Notes: generated by a model from the sequence alone, not told the origin. DNA of 64,000 nucleotides from Alphaproteobacteria bacterium (GCA_017635595.1 JAGBLF010000026.1:3008-67007), one strand, 5' to 3'; positions 3,749 to 51,514 are shown, counted from the first letter of the stretch. Program-made: numbers and translations.

Positions 3749-4465
3749 TTATTTAATTTTATTCAAAATCTCATTAACGTTTTTAAGTTGGTTCATAATA
3801 GAATTTTGCTTTTCATTAACCTTAGCCAATTCGCTTTTCTTTTCTTCTTCGGCCTGTTTTTCTAAAACGCTTTCCGGAACATCTTTAAATTCGGAATAGT
3901 ATTCCGGATTTTTAGAATTGATATAGTTAAAGTTGCTCGTACAGCCACCTGCATTAACAATTTTACTATCCTTCATCTCAATCGATTCACCGTCACTGAT
4001 ACAAGACTTAACGTTGTATTCAACATTATCTAACAACGTAAAGCATTTATCGGTAGCTACTTCCGACGAAAAACTCTTTTGGCGATGTGGCATAATCGAT
4101 GATATTTTTACGTTTTTGGTAATTTCCGTTGTTGCTTCTTCGTCTTCGTCATCATTGACGATAATTTCACCTTTTTGAATATCATACTTTTTAGAAATAG
4201 TATCCTTCCAGGTAAGCTCCAAGACGGCTTCTTTAACTTCTTTTTCCATACGGTTGTAAACGGTTACCATAAAAGAGCATCTGTCGATAAAGCCGTCTTT
4301 GTTACGTATCGGCTCAATATTTTCAATACGGAAAAGAATCGCCCCCTCATCAGAAGTATCTTCTTTTTGGTTTTTCCGACTAGGCGCCGCATTTGCATTA
4401 ACAGCCGCACCCAAAACCATTGCAGCGGCCAAACTTAAAGAAACTACTTTGTTTAATAATGTCAT
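3749..4465 (-). CDS. Secreted hypothetical protein (paralog of 3041-3739)
   Basis: Signal peptide MTLLNKVVSLSLAAAMVLGAAVNANA. Core FIDRCSFMVTVYNRMEKEVKEAVLELTWKD resembles MVRCSIRVYVFNDMVERISSLGFKIIWPG in the neighbour. Coiled-coil-like C-terminal tail. Confidence 0.7.
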   Translation of the reverse strand: MTLLNKVVSLSLAAAMVLGAAVNANAAPSRKNQKEDTSDEGAILFRIENIEPIRNKDGFIDRCSFMVTVYNRMEKEVKEAVLELTWKDTISKKYDIQKGEIIVNDDEDEEATTEITKNVKISSIMPHRQKSFSSEVATDKCFTLLDNVEYNVKSCISDGESIEMKDSKIVNAGGCTSNFNYINSKNPEYYSEFKDVPESVLEKQAEEEKKSELAKVNEKQNSIMNQLKNVNEILNKIK

Positions 4466-4543
4466 TTTTCCACTCCGAAATTTAAATTTTTTTTCAGCAT
4501 ACGCAATTAGTGTTTAATTTTTCTTAATTTTTCAAAAAAACTT

Positions 4544-5311
4544 CTACTCCGCCAATTTTCTTTGTAACCGCATCATATCTGACCAAGCTTTAGCTTTTTG
4601 AGCCGGACTGCGCAGCAAAAACGCCGGATGGAAGCTGGCCAGTGCCGGTATAACAGTCCCGTTTGCCGTTGTGTAATCCATAAAATGCCCGCGCATGCCG
4701 GAAATACTTTCAGCATTTCCCAGTACGGCATTGGCGGCACTTCCGCCGAGCAAAAGTAAGACTCGCGGTTTCACCAGTTCGATTTGTCGTTGTAAGAACG
4801 GCAGACAAACAGCGACTTCACCGTCTGTCGGTGTACGATTTCCGGGTGGCCGCCACAGCAGAACATTGGTTATAAAACAATCTTCCCGATGTATGGCAAC
4901 CGACTGCAGCATTTTATCCAAAAGATGACCGCTACGGCCGACAAACGGCTCACCTACTCTATCTTCATCGGCACCCGGTGCTTCACCGATAATCATCACT
5001 TCGGCTTGCGGATTGCCGTGCCCGAACACGGTTGAATTTGCCGAAAACTTAAGCGAACATCCTTCAAAAGTTTCGACCATAGCTTTTAAGTCTTCCAACG
5101 TTTGTGCTTTATCGCATATTTCGCGGGCATTATTGCAGGCAGCCGTATTTTCTTGAGCCAAGAGTGTTGTGGCCGGTCTGCCGGAATTCGGAATTTCATG
5201 ACTTACCTGTTTATCATTCTTGGCAGATAGTAAATTCATCGGTTCTTCGCCGCATATTTCATCGACACCTGACAGCACGTACCAAGATAAAATTTTTTCC
5301 GGATTATCCAT
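4544..5311 (-). CDS. Family 4 uracil-DNA glycosylase with N-terminal extension
   Basis: Motifs [23 protein letters not shown] and HPAFLLR are typical of family-4 UDG. Start MDNPEK at 5311 is preceded by AAGGGG; the ORF is open to 5359. Confidence 0.85.
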
Positions 5312-5446
5312 TTGCACCCCTTTTTTGATAACTATATTATTAAATACTTTTTTTTGCAATATCGCTGTGCGTATTTACACATTTATAATTTCTATTTTAT
5401 AATATTGTTATATACTGATTTTTGGTTAGTTGGGATTTTGAAAGTT

Positions 5447-7318
5447 ATGAAAAATATTATATTAAAAGCTTTAAGCATAATTGTTGTTGCCGCAGCCGTC
5501 GTATATGCATGTATGCAAAGTTTGTATCCGAATCTGCATAAAGAAGAAAATCTTTCTTTGAACCCGCAGTTTGACAGCGCCGGTTATTGGAACACGCCTT
5601 CGTTTACGGTTAAAGAAAACAGTGACAGCACTTATTCCGTGTTTGGCAAAAATTCTGTTTACGGTGCATATTTGGCCGGTCGTATTGCGCATTTGCGCCA
5701 AGATTTTGACAATGCTGCCGAGTATTACAAAATCGTAGCCGAAAAAGATAAGGACAACGACAAAGTTAATCGTGCGACTTATGTTATACTGTCTTCTTTA
5801 GGTAAAATTGATGAAGCCGCTGTTTATGCCGCCAAGGAAATTGAAAGCGGACAAAGTGATACGTTGGCTCCGCTTGTTGTTGCCATTAAAGATTTTGCCG
5901 ACGGAGATTATGCAAAATCACGCCAAACCATAGGTACTTTAACGGATAAAATACATCAAATTCTGATTAACCCGCTTTTTGATGCCTGGACTTATGCCGG
6001 CGAAAAAAATGAAGAAGAGGCCTTAAAAAGCTTGGATAGAATCCATACCGAACCATCCGTTGTCGGCTTAAAATTAATGCATCAGGCCATGATATATGAT
6101 CTCTTGGGCAACACCGCTAAAGCCGAAGAAAAATTTGCCGAGCTTATTCAAAAACATCCACAAGAAGTAACTTACCGCAATTTGGAAATCATTGCCGATT
6201 TCTATGTCCGAAGCGGCAATAAAGATATGGCTCGCAAAATTTCAAGCCGATACAATGATAACAGTATGCTCGCGCTCTTGTTAAAAAATATCAATAACAA
6301 AATCGAAAATTCCGAACCGAATAAAGCCCCGATTATCGACACCCCGCAAAAAGGTTTGGCCGAGGCTTTATTCAATGTCGGCACAATGTTTCGCCTTTCT
6401 AACGGCGGCGCCGAATTTGCGCAAATATATATCGCCGCTTCGTCTTATTTGAACCCGTCTTACGATATTTCAAAAATTGCTCTGGCCAACGTTTTGGAAG
6501 AACTCGGATTAATTAAAGAAGCCAATAAATATTATGAGCAAATTCCGCAAGAATCCGGTTCGTATTTTATTGCGCAGATTAAGCGAATAGAAAACCTTAA
6601 TAATATCCAAGATTACGCCGAAGCCGAAAAAAGCTTGCGCCATTTACTGACCATATACCCGGACAACACCCAGTTGTTAAATGATTTGGGTGACATTATG
6701 GCTAATCAAAACAAACACGATGAGGCTATTAAAATTTATCTTAAAGCAATCGAAAACATTAAAGATGTTCAATATGATACCTGGCCGGTTTACTATGCTC
6801 TGGCCGTATCTTACCATCGTAGCAACCAAAAAGATTTGGCGGAAAGGTATATGCTTAAAGCTCTTGAGCTGAGTAATCGTAACGCCAACGTCTTAAACTA
6901 TTTAGGATACATGTGGCTGGATGAGGGCCGCAATATTGACCAGGCTGTCCAAATGATTCTCGACGCGTACACACAGTATCCGTATGAAGGGCATATTATA
7001 GACAGTTTGGGATGGACTTATTACCGTATCGGCAACTATACAAAGGCCATCGAATTTTTGGAACGGGCTGCCGATATGAACTCTGGTAATGCTGTCATTA
7101 ATGACCATTTAGGTGATGCTTATTGGTTTATAGGCCGCAGAAACGAGGCCGTTTTCCAGTGGAAACATGCGCTTGTGTTAAAAGAAGATGCCGAATCGCT
7201 CGATAAAAAAGCCGTTGAAGCTAAAATAGACGAAGGTTTACAGCAAAATAACATTTTGCAAGTAACCGATTCCGAGCTTTTGAAACAACTTGATAATTTA
7301 TCAATTGAAGAAAAATAA
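5447..7318 (+). CDS. TPR-repeat protein with N-terminal membrane anchor or signal
   Basis: Multiple TPR-like repeats (e.g. AEYYKIVAEKDKDN, ALELSNRNANVLNYLGYMWLDEG, AIEFLERAADMNSGNAVINDHLGDAYW). ATG at 5447 (MKNIILKALSIIVVAAAVVYA) is preferred over the track start at 5312, which overlaps the divergent UDG gene. Confidence 0.8.
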   Translation: MKNIILKALSIIVVAAAVVYACMQSLYPNLHKEENLSLNPQFDSAGYWNTPSFTVKENSDSTYSVFGKNSVYGAYLAGRIAHLRQDFDNAAEYYKIVAEKDKDNDKVNRATYVILSSLGKIDEAAVYAAKEIESGQSDTLAPLVVAIKDFADGDYAKSRQTIGTLTDKIHQILINPLFDAWTYAGEKNEEEALKSLDRIHTEPSVVGLKLMHQAMIYDLLGNTAKAEEKFAELIQKHPQEVTYRNLEIIADFYVRSGNKDMARKISSRYNDNSMLALLLKNINNKIENSEPNKAPIIDTPQKGLAEALFNVGTMFRLSNGGAEFAQIYIAASSYLNPSYDISKIALANVLEELGLIKEANKYYEQIPQESGSYFIAQIKRIENLNNIQDYAEAEKSLRHLLTIYPDNTQLLNDLGDIMANQNKHDEAIKIYLKAIENIKDVQYDTWPVYYALAVSYHRSNQKDLAERYMLKALELSNRNANVLNYLGYMWLDEGRNIDQAVQMILDAYTQYPYEGHIIDSLGWTYYRIGNYTKAIEFLERAADMNSGNAVINDHLGDAYWFIGRRNEAVFQWKHALVLKEDAESLDKKAVEAKIDEGLQQNNILQVTDSELLKQLDNLSIEEK

Positions 7319-7338
7319 TTTATTCGTTTAAAAAATTT

Positions 7339-7373
7339 CAGCCTCACCAAACAAATGGGGTGAGGCTGTTTTT
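7339..7373 (+). terminator. Rho-independent terminator after the TPR gene
   Basis: cagcctcacc (7339-7348) / ggtgaggctg (7359-7368), followed by ttttt. Confidence 0.7.
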
Positions 7374-7383
7374 ATTGATTATT

Positions 7384-7830
7384 TTAATGTTTGTAAGGGT
7401 GCGAAACCGTCCAACGGACAAAAATCGCTTTGCCTTTGCCGCGCATTTTGAGTTTTTCGGCGGCGGCATCGGCTGCTTCGGTCAAATCCACCGGCGGAGG
7501 TGTTGTCCAACTGCCGCCAATACGCTCGCATTTAAACTCGGCATCAACACCGGCCATGTTATGTTCATCGACATAAACTTTGCATACTTCATACGCTTTC
7601 ACACAGACGTCTTGCAAGCGTTTAGAATAATGTGCCTTCACAATAAGCATTCCCGGTGTTACGCGAAACATGGCTTGCTTTCCGTCTACAATTTCTTCTC
7701 GTTTAAAAACATGTAGTGCCTTGCACTTTTCGCCATTCGCTGAGGCAATAACTGTCGCAAAATCTCTTTCACCCTCTTCACAAAGTGCAATGTGCCCTTT
7801 GTTAGTCTTGACTGCTAAAAATGTAATCAT
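7384..7830 (-). CDS. Hypothetical protein, one copy of an unrecognised ~125-aa domain
   Basis: 148-aa ORF in a visibly more G+C-rich stretch. Homologous by eye to each half of the 7965-8786 product (QAMFRV...VCVKAYEV...YVD...GGSW...AAAEKL). Has its own promoter-like and terminator-like signals. Confidence 0.7.
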   Translation of the reverse strand: MITFLAVKTNKGHIALCEEGERDFATVIASANGEKCKALHVFKREEIVDGKQAMFRVTPGMLIVKAHYSKRLQDVCVKAYEVCKVYVDEHNMAGVDAEFKCERIGGSWTTPPPVDLTEAADAAAEKLKMRGKGKAIFVRWTVSHPYKH

Positions 7831-7964: not shown

Positions 7965-8786
7965 TTACTTCATCTTTGAATAAAGCGTTTCGGTGTCGGT
8001 CATCTCTATTTTCTCAATTAAGAGTTCGACGACCGGCCGCAGGTTACGAGAAACCTCCTGCTGCCACTTGCCGTTGAGACAATGGTTAAGAAGTTCGACC
8101 TCTGCCTGGGGACCGCCTTTGTCAACGAAGGTACGAACCACATTGTAGATGGAAATCTCCTGACCCTCGTCCGTCTGGTGACCGCGCAAGATTTTGTACC
8201 TGCCGAAAACGGGGACAATTGCTTGTCGACCGGGCTTGCCTTTTTCTTTGTCAAAAACGAAGACTGAAGTTGCTTCGCCACCGCCGGGCGTACAGACAAT
8301 TGTCGATTCGTCGGCGCCGCAATTTTCGTACAGGGCAAAGAAGCCTTTCTTAGTGCGGGACAGCGGCAAAGTTGCCGGCATATTTGCCACAACGCGTTGG
8401 CTAAAACCACGCAACTTGGATAGCAGGACATCCACCATATAGGATAGTTCTTTTGGCAGCTGCTTGTTCCACATACCGTTTTGCAGCTTGCATATCTCCT
8501 CCACTTTCACCAGGTGAACACCATGGCTGTTGGTAAAAGGATAAACAACTCTGTATACGGAAACCGTCTCGCCTTCGCCACTGGTTCCAATCAAAACATA
8601 TTGATTTTTCTTTACGGGAACCAGTGCTTGCTTCGGAGCCGCAACAGGTTTGTTCAAGTGCATGGCATTGGCGGGGCTACCATCTGCTTTGCAGATAATA
8701 ACCGCTTCATCTTTGCTTTGCGTTTCCCACAGAGCATAGACATTTTTCTCTGTTTTAAACGCTTTTAAATACTGATTCATAGGCAT
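7965..8786 (-). CDS. Hypothetical protein, tandem duplication of the same unrecognised domain
   Basis: 273 aa. Residues ~14-125 and ~146-260 align to each other (FALYE/YALWE ... QA[LI]VPV ... [VI]S[VI]Y.VV ... NG.W ... L[LI].K[LI]). CTG/CCC-rich codon usage unlike neighbouring genes. Confidence 0.75.
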   Translation of the reverse strand: MPMNQYLKAFKTEKNVYALWETQSKDEAVIICKADGSPANAMHLNKPVAAPKQALVPVKKNQYVLIGTSGEGETVSVYRVVYPFTNSHGVHLVKVEEICKLQNGMWNKQLPKELSYMVDVLLSKLRGFSQRVVANMPATLPLSRTKKGFFALYENCGADESTIVCTPGGGEATSVFVFDKEKGKPGRQAIVPVFGRYKILRGHQTDEGQEISIYNVVRTFVDKGGPQAEVELLNHCLNGKWQQEVSRNLRPVVELLIEKIEMTDTETLYSKMK

Positions 8787-17842: not shown

Positions 17843-18829
17843 ATGTTGAAAAAATCAGGAATCCTTTCCGTTATGTGCTTATCGCTGGTAAGCTGCGGCA
17901 CTATGTGGGGAGAACCGGCTTATAATTCAGAGATGATTATGCAAGCGCAATCTCGCCAGCCGGAAATTAAAATGCCGTCATCAATTGTTTTCTGCCGGGC
18001 CAAACAATGTGCGCCGACACAGCTTTCTATGTCCAAAGAGTTTATTTACAACACTCTTTTACACATGTTTGACAGCAATGCGCGTGAAAAAGCCCTCATC
18101 TGCACCGGCAACCCGAACACACATGCCTGCACGGAAGACTTTATTTCACTACCGGTTACGGTTGGCGTAACACCGGCTTATATGTATATTGATGACGTTA
18201 AAATTTCCGACGTATCGGTTAACCAGCAAAATACGATGGCTTTGAACCTGATGCTTAATTGGAATGTTACTTATAACGGCCAAACACCGACTTGCCGTCC
18301 GAGCAAAACGCTTTTGTATGCCAAAAACGTCAACAACATCATTATGGAAGACGACGGATATACCTGCAAAATGACAACCATCGGCACAACCACCATTAAA
18401 ACAATGTTTGCCATAGACTATATTGATATGGACTACGGCTACATCGGTGGTTTCTATTCCATCGGTTTGTCCGGTCCGGCATACGGCGGCGGCTCGGGTT
18501 ATATGATTTTACGTTTACCTAAAGATATTTCTATCGACTCGAAAGATTATTCCGTTGCACCTCAGACAAATACAATGAGCTACAAACAGGCGGCTCAAGC
18601 TTTTGATAGGGATTTGCCGACACCGAAAGCCGTTCCGCAAACCGACGGGCCTATCCCTAACGTCGATACGATTATCCGCTATAATCATCCGGCACAATCG
18701 TATGACACGGCTAAAAAAGCCGAGGCAGAGAAAAAGAAGATGGAGGCTCAAGCCGTTGACTTCGGCGGGGCTAAAGTTTTCCCGCTTCCGGCAAAATCGC
18801 AAAACGATAACAAATCGGACAAAAAATAA
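17843..18829 (+). CDS. Hypothetical lipoprotein
   Basis: Lipobox SLVSC at residues 14-18. Codon usage matches the backbone. No family recognised. Confidence 0.65.
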   Translation: MLKKSGILSVMCLSLVSCGTMWGEPAYNSEMIMQAQSRQPEIKMPSSIVFCRAKQCAPTQLSMSKEFIYNTLLHMFDSNAREKALICTGNPNTHACTEDFISLPVTVGVTPAYMYIDDVKISDVSVNQQNTMALNLMLNWNVTYNGQTPTCRPSKTLLYAKNVNNIIMEDDGYTCKMTTIGTTTIKTMFAIDYIDMDYGYIGGFYSIGLSGPAYGGGSGYMILRLPKDISIDSKDYSVAPQTNTMSYKQAAQAFDRDLPTPKAVPQTDGPIPNVDTIIRYNHPAQSYDTAKKAEAEKKKMEAQAVDFGGAKVFPLPAKSQNDNKSDKK

Positions 18830-18874
18830 TTTTTTGAGCTTTGTAACATCTTTTATAAACGTTCAACGCATTGA

Positions 18875-18906
18875 AAATCGCTGTATTTGTGTACGGCGAT
18901 TTTTTT
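18875..18906 (+). terminator. Terminator after the 17843-18829 lipoprotein gene
   Basis: aaatcgc (18875-18881) / gcgattt (18896-18902) followed by a T-run. Confidence 0.55.
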
Positions 18907-18919
18907 GTATAAAATAATT
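18898..18919 (+). promoter_or_regulatory. Conserved 22-nt box, copy 1 (gatttttttgtataaaataatt)
   Basis: 21 of 22 nt identical to 50752-50773. Both copies lie 135-215 nt upstream of the two foreign-composition lipoprotein loci. Confidence 0.35.
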
Positions 18920-19131
18920 GATATTTCAAAAAATATATGCTAAAATGTCTGTGTTCATCTACGAATTATAGACAATTATTTTTGCTATAATTAAGAAAAG
19001 AACTGCTTTATGCGGTTTAATCTTTTCGCAGGTGATTTTTTTGTGATACTCCGGTCAGCTATTGTTGACAAGGATTTTTGCCCAATTTAATCATACATAT
19101 AATCCAGCAAACTATCAAAAACTCTTAGAAT

Positions 19132-22100
19132 ATGGAAAACTTTATGAGATTTTCGAGGTACTTCCTCGTAGTTTTCGTGGCCATTTTCATGGCCGCCGGT
19201 ATTTTAACCTCATGCCAAGAGGACGAGATGGCTAAGGCACGTGTCACTTCTATGGCTGACACAACCGAAGTTTATCTCGGTTATGCGCATGAAGCTCTAC
19301 TTGTTCATCACTGGGATTCGACTCGTCGCGTCTCGGTTGAGGATCCGATGGATGCTTCCTTAAAGGTCTGGCAGACTGAGGATGGAGCGAAAACTCATCT
19401 TATCTGCAACAACATGGTTAACCCTGTGTTGAAGGCAAAGAGTGGTGTGCGCTATGCCGAGTACAATGTCACTGAGGACCAGCTTAATCCGAAGGTGACA
19501 GCCACTTGGCTGGCGCGGTCGACAGGCGACAACACGGAGCTCGACACATTGTTCGTTGACTTCTCCGATGGTCAGCGGGATTCTATACCTGTTGACATCA
19601 CGAGTTTCGAAACAGAGGTGAACGGTAACAAGTACCAGTATGGTACGCTGACTGTTGTTGACGCTAATTTCGTTAGCCTGACAAATCTACCTCTTGAGAC
19701 TCGTGCCACACGTGCCGGCGCTATGCGCGCTCCTTACGTTGCCAATACCGTTAACACGGAATACAAGGTCATGCTAAAGGTGCGTGAAAAGAACGTGCAC
19801 GGAGACAATGTCACACCTAAAACGTTTGACGTTCCGGTATATGCTTATGCAACCCGTCATATCTTGAAGGATGATGCGATTAAAAGCATCGTTGCCGAGA
19901 ACAAGAACCGCGTGGTGTTGACCGACTCGACCGAACGTTGCTCGTTTGAAAAGGTAATCACTTACGAATCCGGCGATGTAATACGTGAGCCGATTCAGAT
20001 TATCTTAAATCGCGAGTTCAAGGGTATCGATACTTATGAAAAGACCGTATCGAACTTTGATTTCACATTTAATCGAGCAAAAGGTGTCAGCAAGGGTACC
20101 GATGCAGCTGTCCGTGAGGATGGCAAGTGGCTGGTAAGCGGTCGTACCGATCGTTATGCGGCTACCATCACCAACGGTGTGGCTGCCGACGTCATCACAA
20201 CCGATTACTCACTCTATCACGAGCGTGCCGTCTACACTGACAGTACCTTCGTTGTGGAGTTCGGTTACGAAGATGTAAGATGTAACGAGCTTGAGACAAC
20301 TGTTACCAAGCAGGAGTCCTCGGAGGCCGGCAAATCTAAGGCATTGGAGCATAACAAGATCCAGACCGTTTACATCGGTCATACCCAGGATCTGGCTGAA
20401 GATGTCATTCTCGTAATGACATCTAAGCTTGTGACCGGTTATGAAATTGCTAACCCTCTTTTGAAGGTTTTCAATGATTCCGTAACTGCTACTCTGGACT
20501 TCATCACGAAGTACTCTGACGGCACCAAGGAAACCGAGCACGAGCGTTTCAGCGCACCGCGTTCCTTAGTTTGCACGACGGACTGGTCGTCCACTCAGAT
20601 TGCTGCTACGCAGACAACGGATGAGACTATAGCTATCACCACAACTTCTTCCAACGAGAAGAAGCAGGGCTACTGGAAGTTCACTGAACAGACACGCCGC
20701 CTCGATAACTATGCTCACCTTTCGGATGCATCAAAGCAGCACAACAGTTGGACAGCCGTTGTCCCCAACAGCATCAGCTATACGCGTGAGGGTAAGACGC
20801 ATGACTTTGGTGTTTTGGCATTCGCTGCTACGCACACTAAGGCTACGCTTGTTTCCACAGGTAAGACTTCCGGCGGTGAGTCCTATAAGTACACTGAAGA
20901 AATTAAGGTGCGCTATCAGGACAACAACCAGAGCATCACAGCTCCCGGTAAGTTGTTGGTCAACGGCTCAGAGGTTCGCGGCTTTGAGATTCGCGACAAG
21001 AAGCTGGTGGTTGAAAACGATAAGGTTACGGCAAGTTTGACTTTTGTTACCGTCTTTATGAACGGTACCGAGGACAAGGATATGGTCTCTAAGACATTCC
21101 CTCGTTCCTTAAAAGTCAACACAAACTGGACCGCCATCGAAAAAACAACCGCCGATCAGACCACGGGACAGCCGACGGTAACCAAAACCGGTTCGCAGTC
21201 TAAGACCGATGATGAGTGGAAGTGGAATGAGGAAACGCGCTCGATCACAACAGTTGCAACTCTGGCTTCTTCGAAGCAGAACAACAACTGGACTTCTGTT
21301 GATCCGAACAGCATCGTATTCACTCGCAACGGTCAGACGGCTGACTTTGGTACACTGGCCTTCAGTGCGGCGTACGTCAATGCAACGGCTGTGCAGACGA
21401 GCAAGTCAGGTCTTGTTGAAGTCTATGATTACACAAATGCAATCAGTGTATCGTTAGGCGACAACATCCAGACGACAACGGCTCCCGGTACTATCCGTGT
21501 TGAAAAGGATAAGGTTGTAACTGACCACGAAATCCGTGATGCCAAGATGGTTATCTCGGACAACAGTGTCGATTGCAGTCTGACCTTTGTAACGCTTTGG
21601 AATGATGGTACAGAGACGACAGAACCTGTTAACAAGTCCTTCCCGCGTACATTGAGTCCTTACACCAATTGGACGGTAGAAGCAAAGGACGGCAATGAGC
21701 AGACAGGCGCCGCTAACGTCGTTGACTTCGTTAAGAAGAACATGACGGACGGTGATTGGTCTTACGTTCGTGAAGAGCGTGACATCGTCACCAAAGTAGT
21801 GGTTGCAGGCCTGACCAAAGAAAACGGTTGGACTTCTGTTGAACCTAACAGCATCGTGTTTACCCGTGAGGGCAAGACTCATGCTTTCGGTGAGGTTAAT
21901 TTCAATGCCAAGGAAGACGGCCATAGCGCAGTCTTAGGAAACTCCTCCGCAACACTTGACGTTTACAATTATACCGATAAGCTGACTGTGACTTTTGGTT
22001 CTAACACCAAGTCTTCAACAGCTCCCGGCACAATCAATGTCAAAAAGGAAATTGTTCCCGTCGGCTACGAAATCATTAACCAGAATCTGGATGTTCAGCA

Positions 22101-23067
22101 AAACGGTGTAACTGCCAGCCTTGACTTTGTGACAAAGTTCTCGGACGGCTCGACAACCAGCGAGAAAATCTCTAAGTTCTTCGCAAGACGTTTTGAGGTT
22201 TTAACCAACTGGAGTTCTGTTGAGACCAGCAATTCTCAGAATACCGGCGCCGCAACCGTGACGCTCAACAACTCGGAGAACAAGAAGGACGGTGACTGGA
22301 GCTACGTTAATGAAACACGCAGCATCAACACAACCGCCACCCTCGCCGGTTCTACGCAGAACAACGGATGGAAGTCAGTTGACCCGAATGCTATCACCTT
22401 CACCAAGAACGGTCAGACTTATTCGTTCCAAACTTTGAGCTTCGATGCTTCGGAGACCGGTGCGAATGTCAACAAGACCGGTGAAGATGATGACAAGACT
22501 GTTTATTCTTACACGGATAACATCAGCGTCACATTCGGTTCTAACAACTTTGCCAGCCAGGCTCCCGGTAAGATTACGGTAAATAAGCCTTGGGATTCCG
22601 ATTTCCCGAAGGAGTGGGGTAAGTTTGTTGCTTGCAAATTTACCGTTGCCCCCGACGAAAACCGCAAGACCTGGGTTTATACTTGGAGTATGCACTTCGA
22701 AAACGGCACATTGCCTGTTGTCGTTCGCAAGAATGCTTCAGAGGCCGAAATCAACCAGAGTTACTTCACTTCCGAGACCGATTCTCGTTTGAACGGCGGT
22801 TACTATCTCAAGTCTAAGAAGGCTTGGGTGAACACCATAGCCGGCGACGGAACCGATTGGATGGAGTGGCTGAACACCGCCAACCAGAATCAGGGCAACA
22901 TGGCATATTCAACTGCCACCGCCTGGGGTTGGGATGACGGAGCTCGGACGAACGGACATCCTTCTGTCTTCACAAATCGTTTCACTGCCAAGATTACAAA
23001 CAATGGTCTGGTGCTGACGATTTACAAGGAAGGCAAGGAGTTTGCTTCTTACAAAGCCGGAAAGTAA
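19132..23067 (+). CDS. Giant repeat-containing surface lipoprotein, Bacteroidota-like
   Basis: 1311 aa. Signal peptide with lipobox LTSC (Cys28) followed by QEDE. Four ~180-aa repeats and a distinct ~160-aa C-terminal domain. AAG/GAG/CTC/ACC-rich codons, no SD before the ATG, own terminator. Confidence 0.85.
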   Translation: MENFMRFSRYFLVVFVAIFMAAGILTSCQEDEMAKARVTSMADTTEVYLGYAHEALLVHHWDSTRRVSVEDPMDASLKVWQTEDGAKTHLICNNMVNPVLKAKSGVRYAEYNVTEDQLNPKVTATWLARSTGDNTELDTLFVDFSDGQRDSIPVDITSFETEVNGNKYQYGTLTVVDANFVSLTNLPLETRATRAGAMRAPYVANTVNTEYKVMLKVREKNVHGDNVTPKTFDVPVYAYATRHILKDDAIKSIVAENKNRVVLTDSTERCSFEKVITYESGDVIREPIQIILNREFKGIDTYEKTVSNFDFTFNRAKGVSKGTDAAVREDGKWLVSGRTDRYAATITNGVAADVITTDYSLYHERAVYTDSTFVVEFGYEDVRCNELETTVTKQESSEAGKSKALEHNKIQTVYIGHTQDLAEDVILVMTSKLVTGYEIANPLLKVFNDSVTATLDFITKYSDGTKETEHERFSAPRSLVCTTDWSSTQIAATQTTDETIAITTTSSNEKKQGYWKFTEQTRRLDNYAHLSDASKQHNSWTAVVPNSISYTREGKTHDFGVLAFAATHTKATLVSTGKTSGGESYKYTEEIKVRYQDNNQSITAPGKLLVNGSEVRGFEIRDKKLVVENDKVTASLTFVTVFMNGTEDKDMVSKTFPRSLKVNTNWTAIEKTTADQTTGQPTVTKTGSQSKTDDEWKWNEETRSITTVATLASSKQNNNWTSVDPNSIVFTRNGQTADFGTLAFSAAYVNATAVQTSKSGLVEVYDYTNAISVSLGDNIQTTTAPGTIRVEKDKVVTDHEIRDAKMVISDNSVDCSLTFVTLWNDGTETTEPVNKSFPRTLSPYTNWTVEAKDGNEQTGAANVVDFVKKNMTDGDWSYVREERDIVTKVVVAGLTKENGWTSVEPNSIVFTREGKTHAFGEVNFNAKEDGHSAVLGNSSATLDVYNYTDKLTVTFGSNTKSSTAPGTINVKKEIVPVGYEIINQNLDVQQNGVTASLDFVTKFSDGSTTSEKISKFFARRFEVLTNWSSVETSNSQNTGAATVTLNNSENKKDGDWSYVNETRSINTTATLAGSTQNNGWKSVDPNAITFTKNGQTYSFQTLSFDASETGANVNKTGEDDDKTVYSYTDNISVTFGSNNFASQAPGKITVNKPWDSDFPKEWGKFVACKFTVAPDENRKTWVYTWSMHFENGTLPVVVRKNASEAEINQSYFTSETDSRLNGGYYLKSKKAWVNTIAGDGTDWMEWLNTANQNQGNMAYSTATAWGWDDGARTNGHPSVFTNRFTAKITNNGLVLTIYKEGKEFASYKAGK
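20428..22587 (+). repeat. Four in-frame ~540-bp (180-181 aa) divergent tandem repeats inside the 1311-aa gene
   Basis: Anchor motifs recur with a 180-181 aa period. G[YF]EI/DHEI at aa 436, 617, 798, 978. N.W..V.PN[SA]I.[FY]T..G.T at aa 537, 717, 897, 1077. [TQ]APG at aa 603, 783, 963, 1143. Confidence 0.85.
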
Positions 23068-23097
23068 CAAGAAACAACCTGCGTAAACTATAAAAAG

Positions 23098-23132
23098 CAG
23101 CGTCCCTCTTTTATGAGAGACGCTGTTTTTTT
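23098..23132 (+). terminator. Terminator after the 1311-aa gene
   Basis: cagcgtc (23098-23104) / gacgctg (23119-23125) with additional inner pairs, followed by ttttttt. Confidence 0.7.
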
Positions 23133-37720: not shown

Positions 37721-39007
<1,287 letters not shown>

Positions 39008-45078: not shown

Positions 45079-48000
45079 TTATTCTCCCATACCTCCTCTT
45101 TTCTTCGGATTAGGCATCGGCCCGGTCTTACCATCTTTAACACCTCTACCTTTATTTGAGGTCTGTCCTGCAACTTTGCCGGTACCGACATCAAATCTGC
45201 CGCTGGACGGACGCTTACCGTATTTATCATCCTGTGAACGACCGGTCGAATTATCGTGCGCTGCCGTTACCCGACCTCTGTCTGCACCATTACTCAAAGC
45301 AAAAGTAACAAACTTAGTAAACTTCTGCAAAGTCATATGGTTGCGCGGTAAGTCTTGACCATTAAATGACAAGTTGGTTTGGAACATATCTTGTCTGGCC
45401 TGAGCTGTTGCCTCTTTACCTTTTTTGGTTTCATGATAACCTTTGGTTTCAGCCAACCGATCAATGGTTGTAGCCAAAGCTTTGTCGTATGTTGCTTTAC
45501 GTTCGGTAATGTAATCGACCAAATTATCTGCCTTTGTCTTACCGGCTTCACGATCGGCTTTAAGTTCTTCCATAACGAGTTTTTTGTAAGCAATTTCTTC
45601 TGCCTGAGTCGGCTCAATACCATAGACGATTTTAAACTCATCGGCCAACAGATTTTTAACATCCATTTCCGGTGGAATGTATTTCTTCTTCGGCTTCGGA
45701 TCCGGTGTCGGCGTCTGGGTCGGAGTCTGGGTCGGTTTTGGCTTAAAGACACTGAATAATCTGTCGGCAATGGCACCGGCACGTTTTCTCATACCGCCGA
45801 ACATACCTTTAACCGGTTCCCAATAACCTGCCCCCCATAACTTATGACCCTGAACAATGTCACCCGGAATATTTTCACCAGGTACCGTCGTTACATGTGT
45901 TCCTGCACTCCAACCGGCTTCAGCATCAGCATTATACGACTGTACCGGACTGGCATTAGGACCTGTACCGAATAATGTAAGTTTACCGGCATGATTAAAT
46001 AACGAACCATCCGCCCTTGGCGCATCATCAATTTGTCCACCAACGACATTTTCAATTTTGCCCAACATATCGGCAAGACCCGCCGGATTGGATGATTTTC
46101 CGGTTGATACAATTTCTCTTAAAGCATCCATATAGTTCATTGTAGAACCATCAGGTGCCTTAAATGATAAGTAATCACCGACTGTCGTTCCGGCCGGCAG
46201 ATGATGTGCTGCCGCAAATGCAGGGTCAACCGGTGCATTCGGGTTCGGAGCCAAGTAGGCCAATTGCTCAAACTTATATCCCAACATATCGGTATTCATA
46301 ACAAAGCTAGGATTTTTCGGGTCATTAGCAATATCAGTAAAAAATGCCTTATCATCACCGGTTGCATGAATGGCACTTTCAATACCGGCTCGTAAATTTG
46401 TTACCGCATCGGCAGATACTTTATTCGGATCTGCACTATCTTGCAAATCATGAGCAACATGGAACTTATTTAAGAATTCACTGTATCTCGGATCATCAAG
46501 ACGATTGGTTGCATGTGCTCTCTCTGTTTCGGAATAGTCATGTGAAGTCGGTCCGGCTTTTTCTTGATCCGGCGTACTCGTACCATCTTTTTGATAAGAA
46601 GGTGTTACACCCAGCAACGAGCCGACATAGCTACCGGCAGCCCCACCAAGAGCGATAGCCGAACCTTTCTTAACCGCTTGCCAAAAAGCTTTACCCGCGG
46701 ATAAGCCATGCGCCTTGGCATCTTTATACGTACCATAACCGGCTACAAGCAAACAGCCGACGCCTAACGCTGTTGCTGCCGGAATATTACCGGTCATCAA
46801 ACAAGCACCAGCGGCAAATCCGAGTGCAGAAGCTGTATTTGTTGTTGCATACGGTTGTTTGAAGCAAAATTCCTTAAATTTCGGTTTCTGACCGGCAGCT
46901 TTGGCCTCTTTCTTATAGTTTTGGTAATTCATATACACACCGACAGCAGCCATCGCCATACTGGTTACACCGGCAACATAAGGTAAAGCAGCCGTTACCG
47001 CAGCTGCCGGAGTCGCACTGGTCAAACCTAATGCACAAGCAGCTTTAACGCCACCGACAGTCACACCGTAAGTTGCCAATTTTTGTCCCAAGCTGGCGGC
47101 AAATGTCCATCCTGCTGTTTTCAACCAATTTACGTTGAACTCACCATCATTACCGAAACGAGTTGCAGCACGCGGATCATACTTGGCAATCGGCTGATGC
47201 ATCCGTTTTAACATATCATCTTTAGGGCCGGAAACTTTACTGATTCGGCTGATTGCGCCCATCGTATCGTTCACCGACAATTTGATTGCTGCATCAGCGC
47301 CTTGTTTTGAGATATTCAGCGGACGATTCGGATCCATCATACGTGTTTTGAATTCTTCTAAGAATTTCGGATCCGTATAGCGGTCATGTCTTTCGATAGC
47401 CTTTCTGACATTATTTTCGGCACCGTCCCAAGCAAAAGCCTGCATTTTAACTCTGTTAGCAAATTCCGTTTGTAAATCATCATCCGATAATGATTTAACG
47501 TCTGCGGCAACATGCGAAATGATTGTATTGTTGCGAGCCAAATCGACCATGGCTTCCAGTTGGCTACCCGGCTTGATTTCAAAACCTTTCTGCCATGTTA
47601 CGGATTCTTCGTTGGTTTCCGGATTTATAAATTGCGGAATGGCAATTTCTTCTTTGCAGTATTTATCCAACAGTGCATCAATATCGCCGTTCCCGATCAT
47701 ATCATCTTTCGGTAAATGATCCGACAGATATTGGCTGAATTCCGGTGTACGACGAATTTCTTCTTTTTCCTCCGGAGAAAATTCGTGCGTTTCATCATGG
47801 AATCTGATATTGCCGAGGAATTGCATGGTTTCATCATCTAATGTGATGTTTGCCATTCTCTTGGTTAAAGTTGTATGATTTTCACGAACCTGACCAATAT
47901 TATCTTTGGTAATATTTTCTATTCCCCAGTATTTATCATACTCCTTGATATCCGAATCTAATTTCGCGGATACGGCATCAATTTTTTGTTGTTGAGCCTC

Positions 48001-49431
48001 TTCAACATCCGGACGGCGTTTTTCAATCATTTCTTTGTAACCGTCATACACATCCGACATGTTGGTATTATCATCATAATTAAAGTAGTCACGGGTAATG
48101 TTACTTACACCTGTATAATACTGGTCGGTCAAAAAATCCATTTGAGCGCCAACGGCATCTCTTTTAGCCTGAAACGCATTTTTGGTTTCTTCATCCTTAG
48201 CTTTGGCAACTTGCTCACCGTAAACATCATAAGCTTGTGTTAAAACCGTCGGTGGAACAGAGCTGATCTTACCGGTTTCAAGCAAATGATCCATCATTGT
48301 GACGTTGAATTCTTCAATTTCTTTATCATCCAAAGATGAAATTGTTGATTGAACCGTGGCGTAAACAAGGTTTTCATCTTTCAACTGTTCTTCGGTCAGC
48401 TGTTTTTTTATTTTGCCTAAAGCATTCAAAGTATCATAACTCAGCATGTCAATGTTTGCATCATTAGCATCTGAATTCGGTGTTCTGAAGCGGCCAAAGA
48501 AGTCTTCCTCTTCTTGTTCATTTTCTTGACCGCCGCCGTTATCATTGCCGCCATTTCCGCCGTTGCCGCCATTTCCGCCGTTGCCGCCGTTATCTCTATC
48601 ATCGGTATTATCTCTGTTATTTTCATCATCGTTCGACAACATACCGATGGTTAGGGAGTCATTTTCTAGCGATTGAACACCCATAAGGTCGCTTAAGGCT
48701 TTATATTGTTCACGGAACGAATCGCTGATTTGGTAAACATCACTGCCGTAAATCTGATCATCCTTACTGTTTAAGGTAGCATCCAAATGGCTTTCAATTT
48801 CATCTTTTTCTTCAGGATGAGCGACAATATATGCATTTTTATTTCTAATAAATTCTTCAATTTCTTCTTTAGGAGCTTCGCCATATTGGTTATCGGCAAG
48901 TCTTAAAAAGTCTTCATATACAGCATCTTTATTATTAAATTTTGTTTGGACTTCAGTTTTTTTGTTATCTTTTTCTTCAGTCTCTTTGGCTGCTTTAGCT
49001 TTTTCTTCTTCCTCTATTTCACGAGCCAGGGATTCATCATGTCTTTTCTCGATATCTTCTGCTGTCACACCGCGTTCGGCCGCCGTTCTCTGAGCAATTC
49101 TTGCAAAGATTTCCTGCTCTACGGTTAGTTTATCAAAGTCTTTTCCCCAATAGGCATGAGCGAAACTGTTTAACGACTCTTTATAGGTTTCAGAATACTC
49201 TTCCGCGTTTAAAATGTTGTCTAATTCTTCTTCTGACAAATCCCCTTTTTCGCTTCGAAACATCCAATACGCAGCCATAGAATCGATAAACGCTACATTG
49301 TCTTTCGAACCTTCAGGATCTCGCTCTATGATACTCACGTGTTTTCCGAATTTATTCCGCACATATTCCTCGAACTCTTGTCTGAATTCCCCGTTACCAT
49401 CAAGCACATTTCCCTTTGTATACTTAGCCAT
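45079..49431 (-). CDS. Giant leaderless protein with central hydrophobic/glycine-zipper block (effector-like)
   Basis: 1450 aa with no signal peptide. Acidic coiled N-terminal part, (GGN)5 tract, hydrophobic Gly/Ala-rich block encoded at about 46600-47125, PTQTPTQTPTPDPKPKKK linker, and a basic Gly-rich tail ending KKRGGMGE. Confidence 0.85.
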   Translation of the reverse strand: MAKYTKGNVLDGNGEFRQEFEEYVRNKFGKHVSIIERDPEGSKDNVAFIDSMAAYWMFRSEKGDLSEEELDNILNAEEYSETYKESLNSFAHAYWGKDFDKLTVEQEIFARIAQRTAAERGVTAEDIEKRHDESLAREIEEEEKAKAAKETEEKDNKKTEVQTKFNNKDAVYEDFLRLADNQYGEAPKEEIEEFIRNKNAYIVAHPEEKDEIESHLDATLNSKDDQIYGSDVYQISDSFREQYKALSDLMGVQSLENDSLTIGMLSNDDENNRDNTDDRDNGGNGGNGGNGGNGGNDNGGGQENEQEEEDFFGRFRTPNSDANDANIDMLSYDTLNALGKIKKQLTEEQLKDENLVYATVQSTISSLDDKEIEEFNVTMMDHLLETGKISSVPPTVLTQAYDVYGEQVAKAKDEETKNAFQAKRDAVGAQMDFLTDQYYTGVSNITRDYFNYDDNTNMSDVYDGYKEMIEKRRPDVEEAQQQKIDAVSAKLDSDIKEYDKYWGIENITKDNIGQVRENHTTLTKRMANITLDDETMQFLGNIRFHDETHEFSPEEKEEIRRTPEFSQYLSDHLPKDDMIGNGDIDALLDKYCKEEIAIPQFINPETNEESVTWQKGFEIKPGSQLEAMVDLARNNTIISHVAADVKSLSDDDLQTEFANRVKMQAFAWDGAENNVRKAIERHDRYTDPKFLEEFKTRMMDPNRPLNISKQGADAAIKLSVNDTMGAISRISKVSGPKDDMLKRMHQPIAKYDPRAATRFGNDGEFNVNWLKTAGWTFAASLGQKLATYGVTVGGVKAACALGLTSATPAAAVTAALPYVAGVTSMAMAAVGVYMNYQNYKKEAKAAGQKPKFKEFCFKQPYATTNTASALGFAAGACLMTGNIPAATALGVGCLLVAGYGTYKDAKAHGLSAGKAFWQAVKKGSAIALGGAAGSYVGSLLGVTPSYQKDGTSTPDQEKAGPTSHDYSETERAHATNRLDDPRYSEFLNKFHVAHDLQDSADPNKVSADAVTNLRAGIESAIHATGDDKAFFTDIANDPKNPSFVMNTDMLGYKFEQLAYLAPNPNAPVDPAFAAAHHLPAGTTVGDYLSFKAPDGSTMNYMDALREIVSTGKSSNPAGLADMLGKIENVVGGQIDDAPRADGSLFNHAGKLTLFGTGPNASPVQSYNADAEAGWSAGTHVTTVPGENIPGDIVQGHKLWGAGYWEPVKGMFGGMRKRAGAIADRLFSVFKPKPTQTPTQTPTPDPKPKKKYIPPEMDVKNLLADEFKIVYGIEPTQAEEIAYKKLVMEELKADREAGKTKADNLVDYITERKATYDKALATTIDRLAETKGYHETKKGKEATAQARQDMFQTNLSFNGQDLPRNHMTLQKFTKFVTFALSNGADRGRVTAAHDNSTGRSQDDKYGKRPSSGRFDVGTGKVAGQTSNKGRGVKDGKTGPMPNPKKRGGMGE

Positions 49432-50751: not shown

Positions 50752-50773
50752 GATTTTTTTGTACAAAATAATT
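50752..50773 (+). promoter_or_regulatory. Conserved 22-nt box, copy 2 (gatttttttgtacaaaataatt)
   Basis: 21 of 22 nt identical to 18898-18919. Lies 137 nt upstream of the 50910 lipoprotein gene. Confidence 0.35.
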
Positions 50774-50909
50774 ACAATACACTCTATCAAAAAGTAATTT
50801 AAATAGCTATGATGCCTACTATTGTTCAAAAGTATAAAAGCTTTTTCATAAAGTTTTATTGTGAGCGTCATAACAAATTCAATCGTTAAATTTTCAAAAT
50901 TACCAATAT

Positions 50910-51500
50910 ATGAAAAACAGATTTTTGTTGGGAATATTTGCGACGATAGTCGGAATATTCACGCTTACGTCCTGCGACAAGGATGAGTACTTAAAAGCTG
51001 AACCTCAGCCGTATTTCTTTAAGATTGTGGATAAAAGCCACATCAACCTCTATGACCAATACGATATTCTATACGAAGAGGGTCGAGAGGCTGAGTTCAA
51101 AATCTCCCCGCAATTCACTATTAATCGATGGAGCACGCAAGCATTGGCTCCCATTGATGGAGAGCAGTTGAACCAAGAAATCGACCCTATAGACGTCAGG
51201 AGGTCAGATGGCTCATTCATCGTTGAAGTAAAATTCAACTTGTTTGAGAACCGGCTCAAAATCTCCGGCCTTAACATAGAGGGGACGGATGCCCAGGGAG
51301 AGAAGTTCTATGTATTTTGCCTTGATGAAGTTTACCTGCAAGGCGAAATCGAAATCGAGGAAGAACGCGCTTCTCCGTTTCTCCAAGAGGGAAAAATTCA
51401 TTATAAACTGGTAAAAGTCAGCAGGAAAGATTCCTTGGTGTTGGCTGAAGCCGACCAGGAGTTTATCATCTTTGATGACCCTGATGATCTTGGATTCTAA
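50910..51500 (+). CDS. Small lipoprotein, Bacteroidota-like
   Basis: Lipobox LTSC (Cys22) followed by DKDE. No SD. AAG/GAG/CTC/CCC codon usage like the 1311-aa gene. Lies 14 nt upstream of the barrel gene. Confidence 0.75.
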   Translation: MKNRFLLGIFATIVGIFTLTSCDKDEYLKAEPQPYFFKIVDKSHINLYDQYDILYEEGREAEFKISPQFTINRWSTQALAPIDGEQLNQEIDPIDVRRSDGSFIVEVKFNLFENRLKISGLNIEGTDAQGEKFYVFCLDEVYLQGEIEIEEERASPFLQEGKIHYKLVKVSRKDSLVLAEADQEFIIFDDPDDLGF

Positions 51501-51514
51501 AAAAAATAAACATT

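Follow-up and report, generated by a model that had tools for sequence, protein, structure and literature searches.

Whether a gene that stands apart from its surroundings in composition, codon use and translation start was imported from another phylum, or is an old part of its host lineage, is the question raised by a 1311-amino-acid (aa) lipoprotein gene of an Alphaproteobacteria bacterium. The gene lies in a 64,000-nucleotide (nt) stretch of DNA (GCA_017635595.1, JAGBLF010000026.1:3008-67007), which was analysed as a whole and is called the window below. An earlier note, made from the sequence alone, had described the gene as an insertion from Bacteroidota encoding a large surface adhesin or S-layer-like lipoprotein. 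The insertion was not borne out. We hold, with somewhat more confidence than doubt, that the gene was inherited vertically and belongs to a so far uncharacterised family of lipoproteins characteristic of uncultured Alphaproteobacteria of gut and rumen, and that its product is an abundant outer-surface stalk-and-tip adhesin or coat, in which repeat number sets the reach and a short paralogue works with a barrel partner. The protein consists of an N-terminal base domain (NTD), four tandem repeats and a C-terminal domain (CTD) rich in tryptophan and asparagine (Table 1).

A word-indexed protein search returned 62 homologues, of which both that carried an organism name were recorded as 'MAG: Alphaproteobacteria bacterium'. 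The same 1311-aa protein was recorded, identical, on three contigs. When 185,579 species, each represented by one genome, were scanned with three peptide patterns, 30 loci (labelled L below) were identified, and all 30 were gut or rumen metagenome-assembled genomes (MAGs) with alphaproteobacterial synteny. The MAGs were named Alphaproteobacteria, Pseudomonadota, Rhodospirillaceae or Azospirillaceae, with four exceptions of one 'cleanbin' series (L004, L007, L008 and L015), which were titled Bacteroidaceae, [Ruminococcus] gnavus or Eubacteriales. In all four, the DnaB, GalE and TerC neighbours were 75-81% identical to those of the window, and the gene order was that of the alphaproteobacterial MAGs. 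The four titles are therefore likely wrong, and were treated as binning or naming errors.

The position of the gene is conserved. In 19 of the 20 loci with a full-length multi-repeat gene, the long gene was found directly 3' of the orthologue of a 328-aa lipoprotein gene and on the same strand, the partner being itself preceded by an SNase-like gene. The loci with this partner directly upstream were L001-L011, L013, L015, L016, L018, L019, L022 and L029. The NTD identity of the long gene tracks that of its 328-aa neighbour, with a Spearman coefficient of 0.87 over 153 genome pairs. Relative to the window, the identity of the long protein was 86% in L001, 49% in L002 and L003 and approximately 43% in L004-L011, and that of the flanking proteins was 72-99% in L001, falling to 40-81% in the most distant loci; the long gene diverges faster than its surroundings, with 43-50% identity where flanking proteins have 55-90%. 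Two distant subfamilies have other neighbours, addB-addA-trx and rph-rdgB in L031 and lptG-lptD-surA-ksgA in L033. As related genomes hold the gene at the same place, and as it has diverged together with its neighbour, it is an old resident of the clade and not an insertion.

The atypical composition on which the insertion had been based was confirmed. The G+C content of the gene was 0.489 overall, and 0.47-0.50 in the four 1-kb segments over it compared with approximately 0.41 on either side. The G+C content at third codon positions (GC3) was 0.565, the maximum among the open reading frames (ORFs) of at least 150 aa in the window, the others having values of 0.32-0.54. Compared with the backbone, the gene used AAG (84% vs. 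22%), CAG (91% vs. 36%) and GAG (55% vs. 18%) far more often; CTC and CCC were also raised, and TTA and CCG lowered, as had been reported, but ACC, which had been listed among the preferred codons, was not raised (32% vs. 34%). AAG did not exceed 53%, nor CAG 67%, in any other ORF of the window. When synonymous choice was simulated from the window's own codon model, the gene was its strongest outlier (z = -13.3) and thus statistically foreign to the backbone, and the deviation was even over the NTD, the repeats and the CTD.

The same signature was present throughout the family. AAG and CAG were above the gene's own flanks in the homologues of all 30 loci, and GAG in all but one; in very AT-rich genomes such as L019, AAG reached 0.42 in the homologue compared with 0.15 in the flanks. 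It was also present in the distant subfamilies of L031 and L033. Being kept down to approximately 43% protein identity, the signature is maintained and is not the remnant of a recent transfer. Foreign G+C content was rejected as its cause, because in L004-L011 the GC3 of the gene equals that of its flanks, yet AAG and CAG are still raised. High expression was rejected as a sufficient cause, because enolase, gap, pgk and a small outer-membrane protein use AAA, GAA and CAA. Enolase, taken as a proxy for high expression, deviated in the opposite direction (z = +6.6; AAG 33%, GAG 3%, GAA 97%), and gap and pgk of L033 followed backbone codon use. As the signature is kept in the family and is opposite to that of the glycolytic genes, neither recent transfer nor ordinary expression-linked bias explains it. 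One conjecture is that it reflects selection on a property of the mRNA, such as a lower number of AU-rich cleavage sites in a message that is both long and abundant; another is GC-biased gene conversion in a recombining antigen gene.

The start of translation is equally distinctive across the family. The initiating ATG at position 19132 is kept in the orthologues. None of the Shine-Dalgarno (SD) motifs GGAG, AGGA or GAGG was found 5' of either candidate ATG, in agreement with the earlier reading, compared with approximately 19 of 46 ORFs in the window that have such a site at the right spacing. The region from -30 to +28 around the start was unstructured. Every homologue with an inspectable start had no SD site and an A/T-rich leader, and the neighbouring genes at these loci carried clear AGGAG-type sites. 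Since the codon anomaly and the SD-less start recur in orthologues and paralogues, in each case relative to their own flanks, they are family traits rather than the scar of a transfer.

The domain layout that had been read from the sequence was upheld, with repeats spanning aa 432-1152 and the CTD aa 1153-1311. The signal peptide, MENFMRFSRYFLVVFVAIFMAAGILTS-C28, has the properties of an Lgt/LspA substrate, defined here as a positive n-region, a hydrophobic h-region and [LVI][ASTVI][GAS]C approximately 15-35 residues from the start, and the lipobox cysteine is nearly invariant in the family alignment. Pairwise identity among the four repeats was 27-51% in 90-aa segments. The layout of the family is NTD-(repeat)n-CTD, in which n is 1, 3, 4, 5 or 6 in different relatives; P0004, a relative with approximately 73% identity, has three repeats compared with the four of the window. 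AlphaFold2 models had a pLDDT of 86.8 (aa 29-620) and 93.9 (aa 793-1311), and both were entirely beta, with strands of 10-19 residues and approximately 13 strands per repeat.

The whole protein had no match in Pfam, NCBIfam or PHROGs, two Pfam hits with E values of about 0.05 being dismissed as noise. The CTD, which had earlier not been assigned to any family, had no match in Pfam or PHROGs, and a PDB sequence search with profiles of the whole family and of the CTD was also negative. A Foldseek search of both models against PDB, and of one against BFVD, returned only generic multi-beta-domain matches with TM-scores below 0.2. The best of these were the Sap S-layer assembly domain, SbsC, CfaB pilins and cadherins in PDB, and phage receptor-binding and tail proteins in BFVD. 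Neither model could be assigned to a fold. The NTD, repeat and CTD are three previously undescribed domains. The proposal of a large surface adhesin or S-layer-like lipoprotein holds insofar as this is a lipid-anchored repeat protein that could plausibly be an adhesin or a coat. The S-layer part gained no support: no Pfam, NCBIfam or PDB sequence relation was found to an S-layer family or to an anchoring module (the S-layer homology domain (SLH), type I secretion system (T1SS) RTX or the type IX secretion system CTD), and the TM-score with Sap was 0.12.

The residues after the lipobox had been regarded as a Bacteroidota-style sorting signal. In Capnocytophaga canimorsus the lipoprotein export signal (LES) is K-(D/E)2 or Q-A-(D/E)2, with an optimum of C-X-K-(D/E)2-X, and a relaxed form requires a polar or positive residue with two acidic ones after it (PMC5080379). 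The C-Q-E-D-E of the window is Q-X-(D/E)2 with X = E and fits the relaxed form only. At least two acidic residues were present at positions +2 to +6 in 65 of 88 distinct family N-termini, and the strict K-(D/E)2 or Q-A-(D/E)2 form in four of the 88. A Bacteroidota genome, the setting in which the LES pathway was shown, is contradicted by the alphaproteobacterial synteny, by the addB-addA-trx and lptG-lptD-surA-ksgA gene orders and by the SD-bearing neighbours. The acidic N-terminus was rejected as a discriminating Bacteroidota signal, as ordinary-codon lipoproteins of the same genomes share it. The acidic stretch and the SD-less start do look Bacteroidota-like, as had been said; the acidic motif is conserved, and is suggestive without being diagnostic.

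The modules of the protein are found outside the family. An exhaustive profile search of 1.84 billion cluster representatives returned only 184 relatives, and a word search started from an alignment yielded little beyond relatives of the first sequence in it. Classification of 147 new representatives gave 45 with the full architecture, 40 with repeat and CTD without an NTD and 33 with the CTD only; when the clusters of 30 distant representatives were looked up, the single organism name found was alphaproteobacterial. CTD copies elsewhere were 30-46% identical to that of the window. Giant proteins of 1300-2250 aa without signal peptides (P0099, P0110, P0124, P0136, P0138, P0140, P0142, P0162 and P0175) hold one to four matched CTD stretches, and several have tail-fibre-like N-termini. 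Of five such giants scanned, three had CBM_5_12 or beta-flower domains and two had PHROG matches, one of these being to a virion structural protein family. A scan of viral contigs with P0124 gave no confirmed match. The CTD was also present in secreted proteins with BspA-type LRR, dockerin, MBG and Big_2 domains, and in small proteins. This spread is what is expected of an extracellular binding module, and the CTD is probably also a phage receptor-binding module.

One distant relative, P0179 (L032), combines a single repeat with a CTD in a lipoprotein of 383 aa, and shares 31% identity with the window protein over 193 aa. On its metagenome contig of 115 kb, its gene adjoins fused lpxC-fabZ, lpxD, BatD and DUF2027-Smr genes, a context (fused lpxC-fabZ, BatD and DUF2027-Smr) that we take to be that of Bacteroidota, and none of the genes examined around it had an SD site. 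The GC3 of this homologue (L032, 10001-11152) was 0.41, compared with 0.21-0.35 in its neighbours, and raised GC3 relative to the host may travel with the modules across phyla. No close Bacteroidota homologue was found in the species genomes with the three peptide patterns, or among the 1.84 billion representatives, P0179 being the best that was checked. Proteobacterial contexts alone yielded the complete NTD-repeat-CTD layout, the leader RNA described below and the highest diversity.

A structured leader RNA precedes the gene and is specific to the family. The element, of approximately 90-105 nt, was delineated with RNAalifold and two rounds of covariance-model search, and comprises, from 5' to 3', a closing stem P1, an unpaired conserved box (ATTA...TATTATT), a long stem P2 with a variable tip and a U-run. 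In the window, P1 was read by hand, with TCATC-TACGAA pairing with TTCGCA-GGTGA, and its 5' extension to 18953 was likewise read by eye. The 15-mer TTCGCAGGTGATTTT was found by aligning orthologous upstream regions. It was exact in L001, L002, L003, L013, L014 and L029, whose proteins are 45-86% identical to that of the window, had one mismatch in L017 and L022, and occurred as the variant TTCRCTGGTAATTTT in more distant loci. When 675 kb were searched on both strands, all 36 covariance-model matches lay 5' of family genes and on the strand of the gene; they covered long and short paralogues, including the sole minus-strand copy. In the alignment, 90% of cells were paired compared with 39-59% when the partners were slid, compensatory changes were observed in 14 of 20 pairs, and there were 104 compensated cells compared with at most 15 in the slid controls. 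None of 500 shuffles reached the observed covariation values. One pair of P1, for instance, is C-G in long genes and U-A in short genes. No matching Rfam family was found, the best hits having E values of 0.35-0.98 and scores well under the gathering thresholds, and no earlier description of this structured RNA is known. Placed at the predicted 5' end and followed by a long untranslated stretch, it is reminiscent of the leaders that stabilise the mRNAs of ompA and of S-layer genes; given its conserved unpaired box and terminal U-run, a role as an attenuator or as a switch that binds a ligand or protein is just as conceivable.

Several genomes hold both a long and a short paralogue, the latter of approximately 750 aa with one repeat. 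Short paralogues were located in L004-L011 and L015 (at approximately 4320-7650), in L018 (14005-17194, minus strand) and in L023-L026, L028, L030, L031 and L033. The short gene is always followed by a gene for a secreted protein of 250-350 aa, which has no Pfam match and in which, by eye, the alternating hydrophobic pattern of a small outer-membrane beta-barrel can be seen. In L004-L011 and L015 the short pair shares the locus with the long gene, between the sixA-like and SNase-like genes. The codon signature is common to the short paralogues and their secreted-protein partners of 250-310 aa. The G-ending lysine, glutamine and glutamate codons were also found in a 285-aa lipoprotein with a Phage_lysozyme domain, which has no leader match and is encoded a few kb 3' of the long gene.

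Other accounts of the descent of the gene were weighed. The contrast in composition is the one point in favour of an assembly chimera, in which a Bacteroidota fragment would have been joined into an alphaproteobacterial contig. The independent MAG contig L001 carries the 86%-identical gene, both junctions and the same neighbours, further independent assemblies from other samples and hosts (L002, L003 and others) also hold the gene with both junctions and the same neighbours, and the identical protein is present on three contigs; the junctions in L001 effectively exclude a chimera, to which we give virtually no credence. A recent cross-phylum acquisition, from a Bacteroidota donor of Prevotella-like composition whose codons, SD-less start and export signal were retained, would account for the atypical codons and raised GC3, the missing SD site, the relaxed LES and the promoter-like site and terminator of its own. 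However, only one mark of a genomic island was observed, the atypical composition. Patchy presence is contradicted by the gene standing behind the same neighbour in 19 genomes, and incongruent divergence by the coefficient of 0.87 and by close relatives that are all alphaproteobacterial. As had been stated before, no integrase or transposase was found among the neighbours, and a tRNA scan of the window found no tRNA genes. The lack of a close Bacteroidota homologue in the species genomes and cluster representatives searched also argues against this account, and the same anomalies in orthologues down to 43% identity, each against its own flanks, are incompatible with an import that has yet to ameliorate. 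We therefore regard recent acquisition as very improbable. An ancient transfer is a better contender, albeit unlikely; here, the gene or its repeat-CTD module would have entered the ancestor of the clade from Bacteroidota or phage, with the SD-less start, the acidic N-terminus and the G-ending lysine, glutamine and glutamate codons kept by selection since then. It draws support from the modules in the L032 lipoprotein, in the phage-like giants and in the LRR and dockerin proteins, and from the raised GC3 of the Bacteroidota-context copy, which would fit an ancient exchange at the level of modules between phyla and phage-like proteins. The restriction of the full architecture, diversity and leader to proteobacterial contexts speaks against it, and the direction of any exchange is not readable from the data. 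Synonymous sites are saturated at these divergences, and composition thus says nothing about origin.

As to function, we infer that the 1311-aa lipoprotein is exposed on the surface. Its fast divergence, variable repeat number, and long and short paralogues point to surface or antigen-like behaviour. The N-terminal lipid would anchor the protein in the outer membrane, exposed on the cell surface; the acidic N-terminus may serve as a sorting signal; the repeats would form a stalk of adjustable length holding the C-terminal binding domain away from the cell; and the leader may stabilise or attenuate the mRNA, as in abundant envelope-protein genes. An alternative, which we consider rather unlikely, is that the protein faces the periplasm in the outer membrane or is retained in the inner membrane, for example as a structural envelope spacer. 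Proteobacterial lipoproteins mostly face the periplasm, Asp at +2 is common in the family, and Pfam and NCBIfam scans of the neighbours identified no Slam (DUF560) or other known surface-lipoprotein translocon adjoining the gene. Yet the predicted rod, with two end domains and as many as six beta modules of 180 aa, would be long for the periplasm, the CTD is shared with phage receptor-binding-type and with extracellular cellulosomal and LRR proteins, and rapid divergence with variation in repeat number is typical of exposed antigens. For the upstream element, the alternative is a DNA-level invertible promoter with inverted repeats, acting in phase variation, and not an RNA. The outer arms in the short paralogues do form a perfect 11-bp inverted repeat (TATCTATGGAT / ATCCATAGATA, approximately 80 bp apart) with -10-like TATTAT boxes between the arms. 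However, the element points the same way with respect to the gene in every one of its 36 copies, which come from independent assemblies, and many pairs change via G-U (at one pair AU 12, GU 10 and GC 5), both of which make an invertible promoter very unlikely. The inner helix with the variable tip covaries too; such changes are of the kind expected of an RNA. The predicted promoter lies upstream of the 5' arm.

Several observations weigh against the surface stalk-and-tip model and its leader RNA. The adhesin or S-layer fold has no confirming structural neighbour among the Foldseek matches to the predicted models. The codon signature is opposite to that of the genes likely to be highly expressed, so high expression alone is insufficient to explain it. 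Asp was present at +2 in 23 of the 88 family N-termini; in Escherichia coli, lipoproteins with Asp at this position are retained by the inner membrane. Acidic residues after the cysteine are also seen in lipoproteins of these genomes that have ordinary codons, and the motif is therefore not specific. The covariation of the leader was counted on a model-fitted alignment, which favours structure, and the window's own match is weak (26.8 bits, E = 0.027 within the window), although the exact 15-mer and the hand-read P1 lend it support.

The gene forms a transcription unit of its own, as an intrinsic terminator ends the upstream gene before it (Table 1). An equivalent of the predicted promoter, TTGCAA-17-TG-n-TTAATA, was seen by eye at the same place in L002, L003, L013, L014, L022 and L029. 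A second candidate, TTGACA-18-AATCAT at 19065-19094, was rejected, as it is not conserved in L001. The strong terminator that had been noted 3' of the gene was found again; its hairpin lies between an A-run and a U-run, and thus serves both convergent genes. The neighbours in the window are suf genes, the SNase-like gene, the 328-aa lipoprotein gene, the sixA-like gene, terC, galE and dnaB. The 328-aa partner had no Pfam or NCBIfam match. Between the leader element and the A-rich start region, a box AATCATACAT is present at 19089-19098, approximately 33-43 nt before the ATG, and recurs at the same place in L001, L013, L014, L022 and L029; short paralogues and the more distant long genes carry another box, AGAAACCAAAT, in a comparable place.

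Table 1. Coordinates of the features of the lipoprotein locus; positions are those of the window unless a locus is named.
Feature	Position	Strand	Details
1311-aa lipoprotein gene	19132..23067	+	stop codon within range
Type II signal peptide	19132..19215	+	lipobox L25-T26-S27-C28; Cys28 is the lipidated residue
Acidic mature N-terminus	19216..19230	+	Q-E-D-E-M, positions +2 to +6
NTD	19216..20424	+	aa 29-431; all-beta; holds 27 of 61 invariant alignment columns
Four tandem modules	20425..22587	+	180-181 aa; ~13 long beta strands each
R1	20425-20964	+	aa 432-611
R2	20965-21507	+	aa 612-792
R3	21508-22047	+	aa 793-972
R4	22048-22587	+	aa 973-1152
CTD	22588..23064	+	aa 1153-1311; Trp/Asn-rich; undescribed mobile domain
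Upstream partner gene	17843..18829	+	328-aa lipoprotein; lipobox LVSC; normal codons; family not assigned
Intrinsic terminator of upstream gene	18868..18908	+	hairpin and U7; ΔG -18.9 kcal/mol, z = -6.1
Predicted sigma-70-like promoter	18918..18946	+	TTGATA-17-TAAAAT, extended -10 TG
Structured 5' leader RNA	18953..19043	+	family-specific; covariance model matches 18961-19043
Invariant 15-mer TTCGCAGGTGATTTT	19025..19039	+	3' strands of P2 and P1
Initiation region	19102..19131	+	A-rich, unstructured, without Shine-Dalgarno site
Bidirectional intrinsic terminator	23092..23131	.	common to convergent sixA-like gene; ΔG -22.2 kcal/mol, z = -8.4
285-aa Phage_lysozyme lipoprotein	L005 15828-16688		
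285-aa Phage_lysozyme lipoprotein	L008 18044-18901		
285-aa Phage_lysozyme lipoprotein	L010 17728-18585		
285-aa Phage_lysozyme lipoprotein	L015 16480-17337		

Other genes of the window were also examined. A second SD-less, codon-deviant pair is present at 50910-53203 on the plus strand (z = -6.7 and -7.2), neither protein having a Pfam or NCBIfam match. It encodes a 196-aa lipoprotein with C-D-K-D-E after the lipobox and a 562-aa secreted protein that ends in GYTLNF and resembles an outer-membrane barrel. The region upstream of this pair (50760-50909) holds ATGATGCCTACTATTGTTCAAAAG, which resembles the conserved box of the leader; the covariance model gave only 14 bits here (E = 9.4). The fourth strongest codon outlier is a 273-aa ORF at 7965-8786 on the minus strand (z = -5.1, GC3 0.54), without a family match, SD site or signal peptide. 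Two giant ORFs, at 45079-49431 on the minus strand (1450 aa) and 56659-60981 on the plus strand (1440 aa), have no NCBIfam match, ordinary codons and SD sites, and are unrelated to the lipoprotein family by hidden Markov model. The enolase gene (37721-38998, minus strand) encodes a protein that is 95-96% identical to those of L007, L009, L011, L027 and L029, the other proteins shared with these loci being 45-90% identical, and in several of them it lies just downstream of the long lipoprotein gene. This identity reflects either unusually strong conservation or exchange between lineages.

Comparison with known systems gave partial likenesses. The surface lipoproteins of Bacteroidota that carry an LES (SusD/E/F-type, BtuG and C. 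canimorsus MucG) resemble the window family in the type II signal peptide with polar and then acidic residues after the cysteine, in the SD-less start, in the large, beta-rich protein of extracellular type, and in the pairing, at the paralogous loci, with a gene for an outer-membrane-barrel-like protein. In contrast to these, the host of the window family is alphaproteobacterial by synteny, the strict LES is rare, and neither a SusC-like TonB-dependent partner nor any Sus or Btu similarity in sequence or structure was found. Neisseria TbpB and fHbp, which are exported by Slam, and the spirochaetal surface lipoproteins OspA and Vsp of Borrelia share with the family a lipidated N-terminus in a diderm, fast evolution, paralogues and an all-beta build with long antiparallel strands, the last of which is predicted here. 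They differ in that the window locus has no Slam gene, that no sequence or Foldseek match was obtained, and that the window protein is much larger and built of 180-aa tandem modules.

Repeat-stalk adhesins and S-layer proteins (Bacillus anthracis Sap, 6qx4; SbsC, 5ftx; CFA/I pilins) are likewise chains of beta domains, and gave the best, if weak, Foldseek matches (probability 0.87); the window family further resembles them in its variable number of repeats and in a terminal domain that binding proteins also possess. TM-scores were only 0.1-0.16, there was no sequence similarity, and the window protein is lipid-anchored rather than held by SLH or exported by T1SS. The 5' untranslated region of E. 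coli ompA is an mRNA stabiliser, and S-layer genes such as Lactobacillus slpA have long leaders. The leader of the window resembles these in that a stable structure, with a long untranslated region after it, is predicted at or close to the 5' end of the mRNA of a putative major envelope protein, but has no relation to them in sequence or Rfam, and differs in its conserved unpaired box and terminal U-run.

A broader and distinctly speculative proposal is that uncultured gut and rumen Alphaproteobacteria might run a dedicated surface-coat gene set. This would comprise the long and short lipoproteins and small outer-membrane-barrel partners, and would differ from the remaining genes of the genome in three linked features, the new leader RNA, SD-independent translation and maintained G-ending lysine, glutamine and glutamate codons. 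The leader would be a new riboregulator or mRNA stabiliser in control of the coat, and the acidic N-termini would point to an LES-like export outside Bacteroidota. A literature search on this lineage found no paper on its surface proteins.

The locus carries a caution: an ancestral gene can be mistaken for a horizontally acquired one when atypical composition, a missing SD site and a transcription unit of its own coincide. The family-wide codon signature, opposite to that of the glycolytic genes, is a case of unexplained but maintained atypical codon usage, and in its leader RNA the family offers a candidate for a new cis-regulatory motif. The presence of the CTD in both phage tail-fibre-like proteins and LRR or dockerin proteins points to a common gut glycan or cell-surface ligand. 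The host Alphaproteobacteria are uncultured, and widespread in the guts of humans, ruminants and other animals; for the role of main surface adhesin or antigen in these bacteria, the family described here is a strong candidate.

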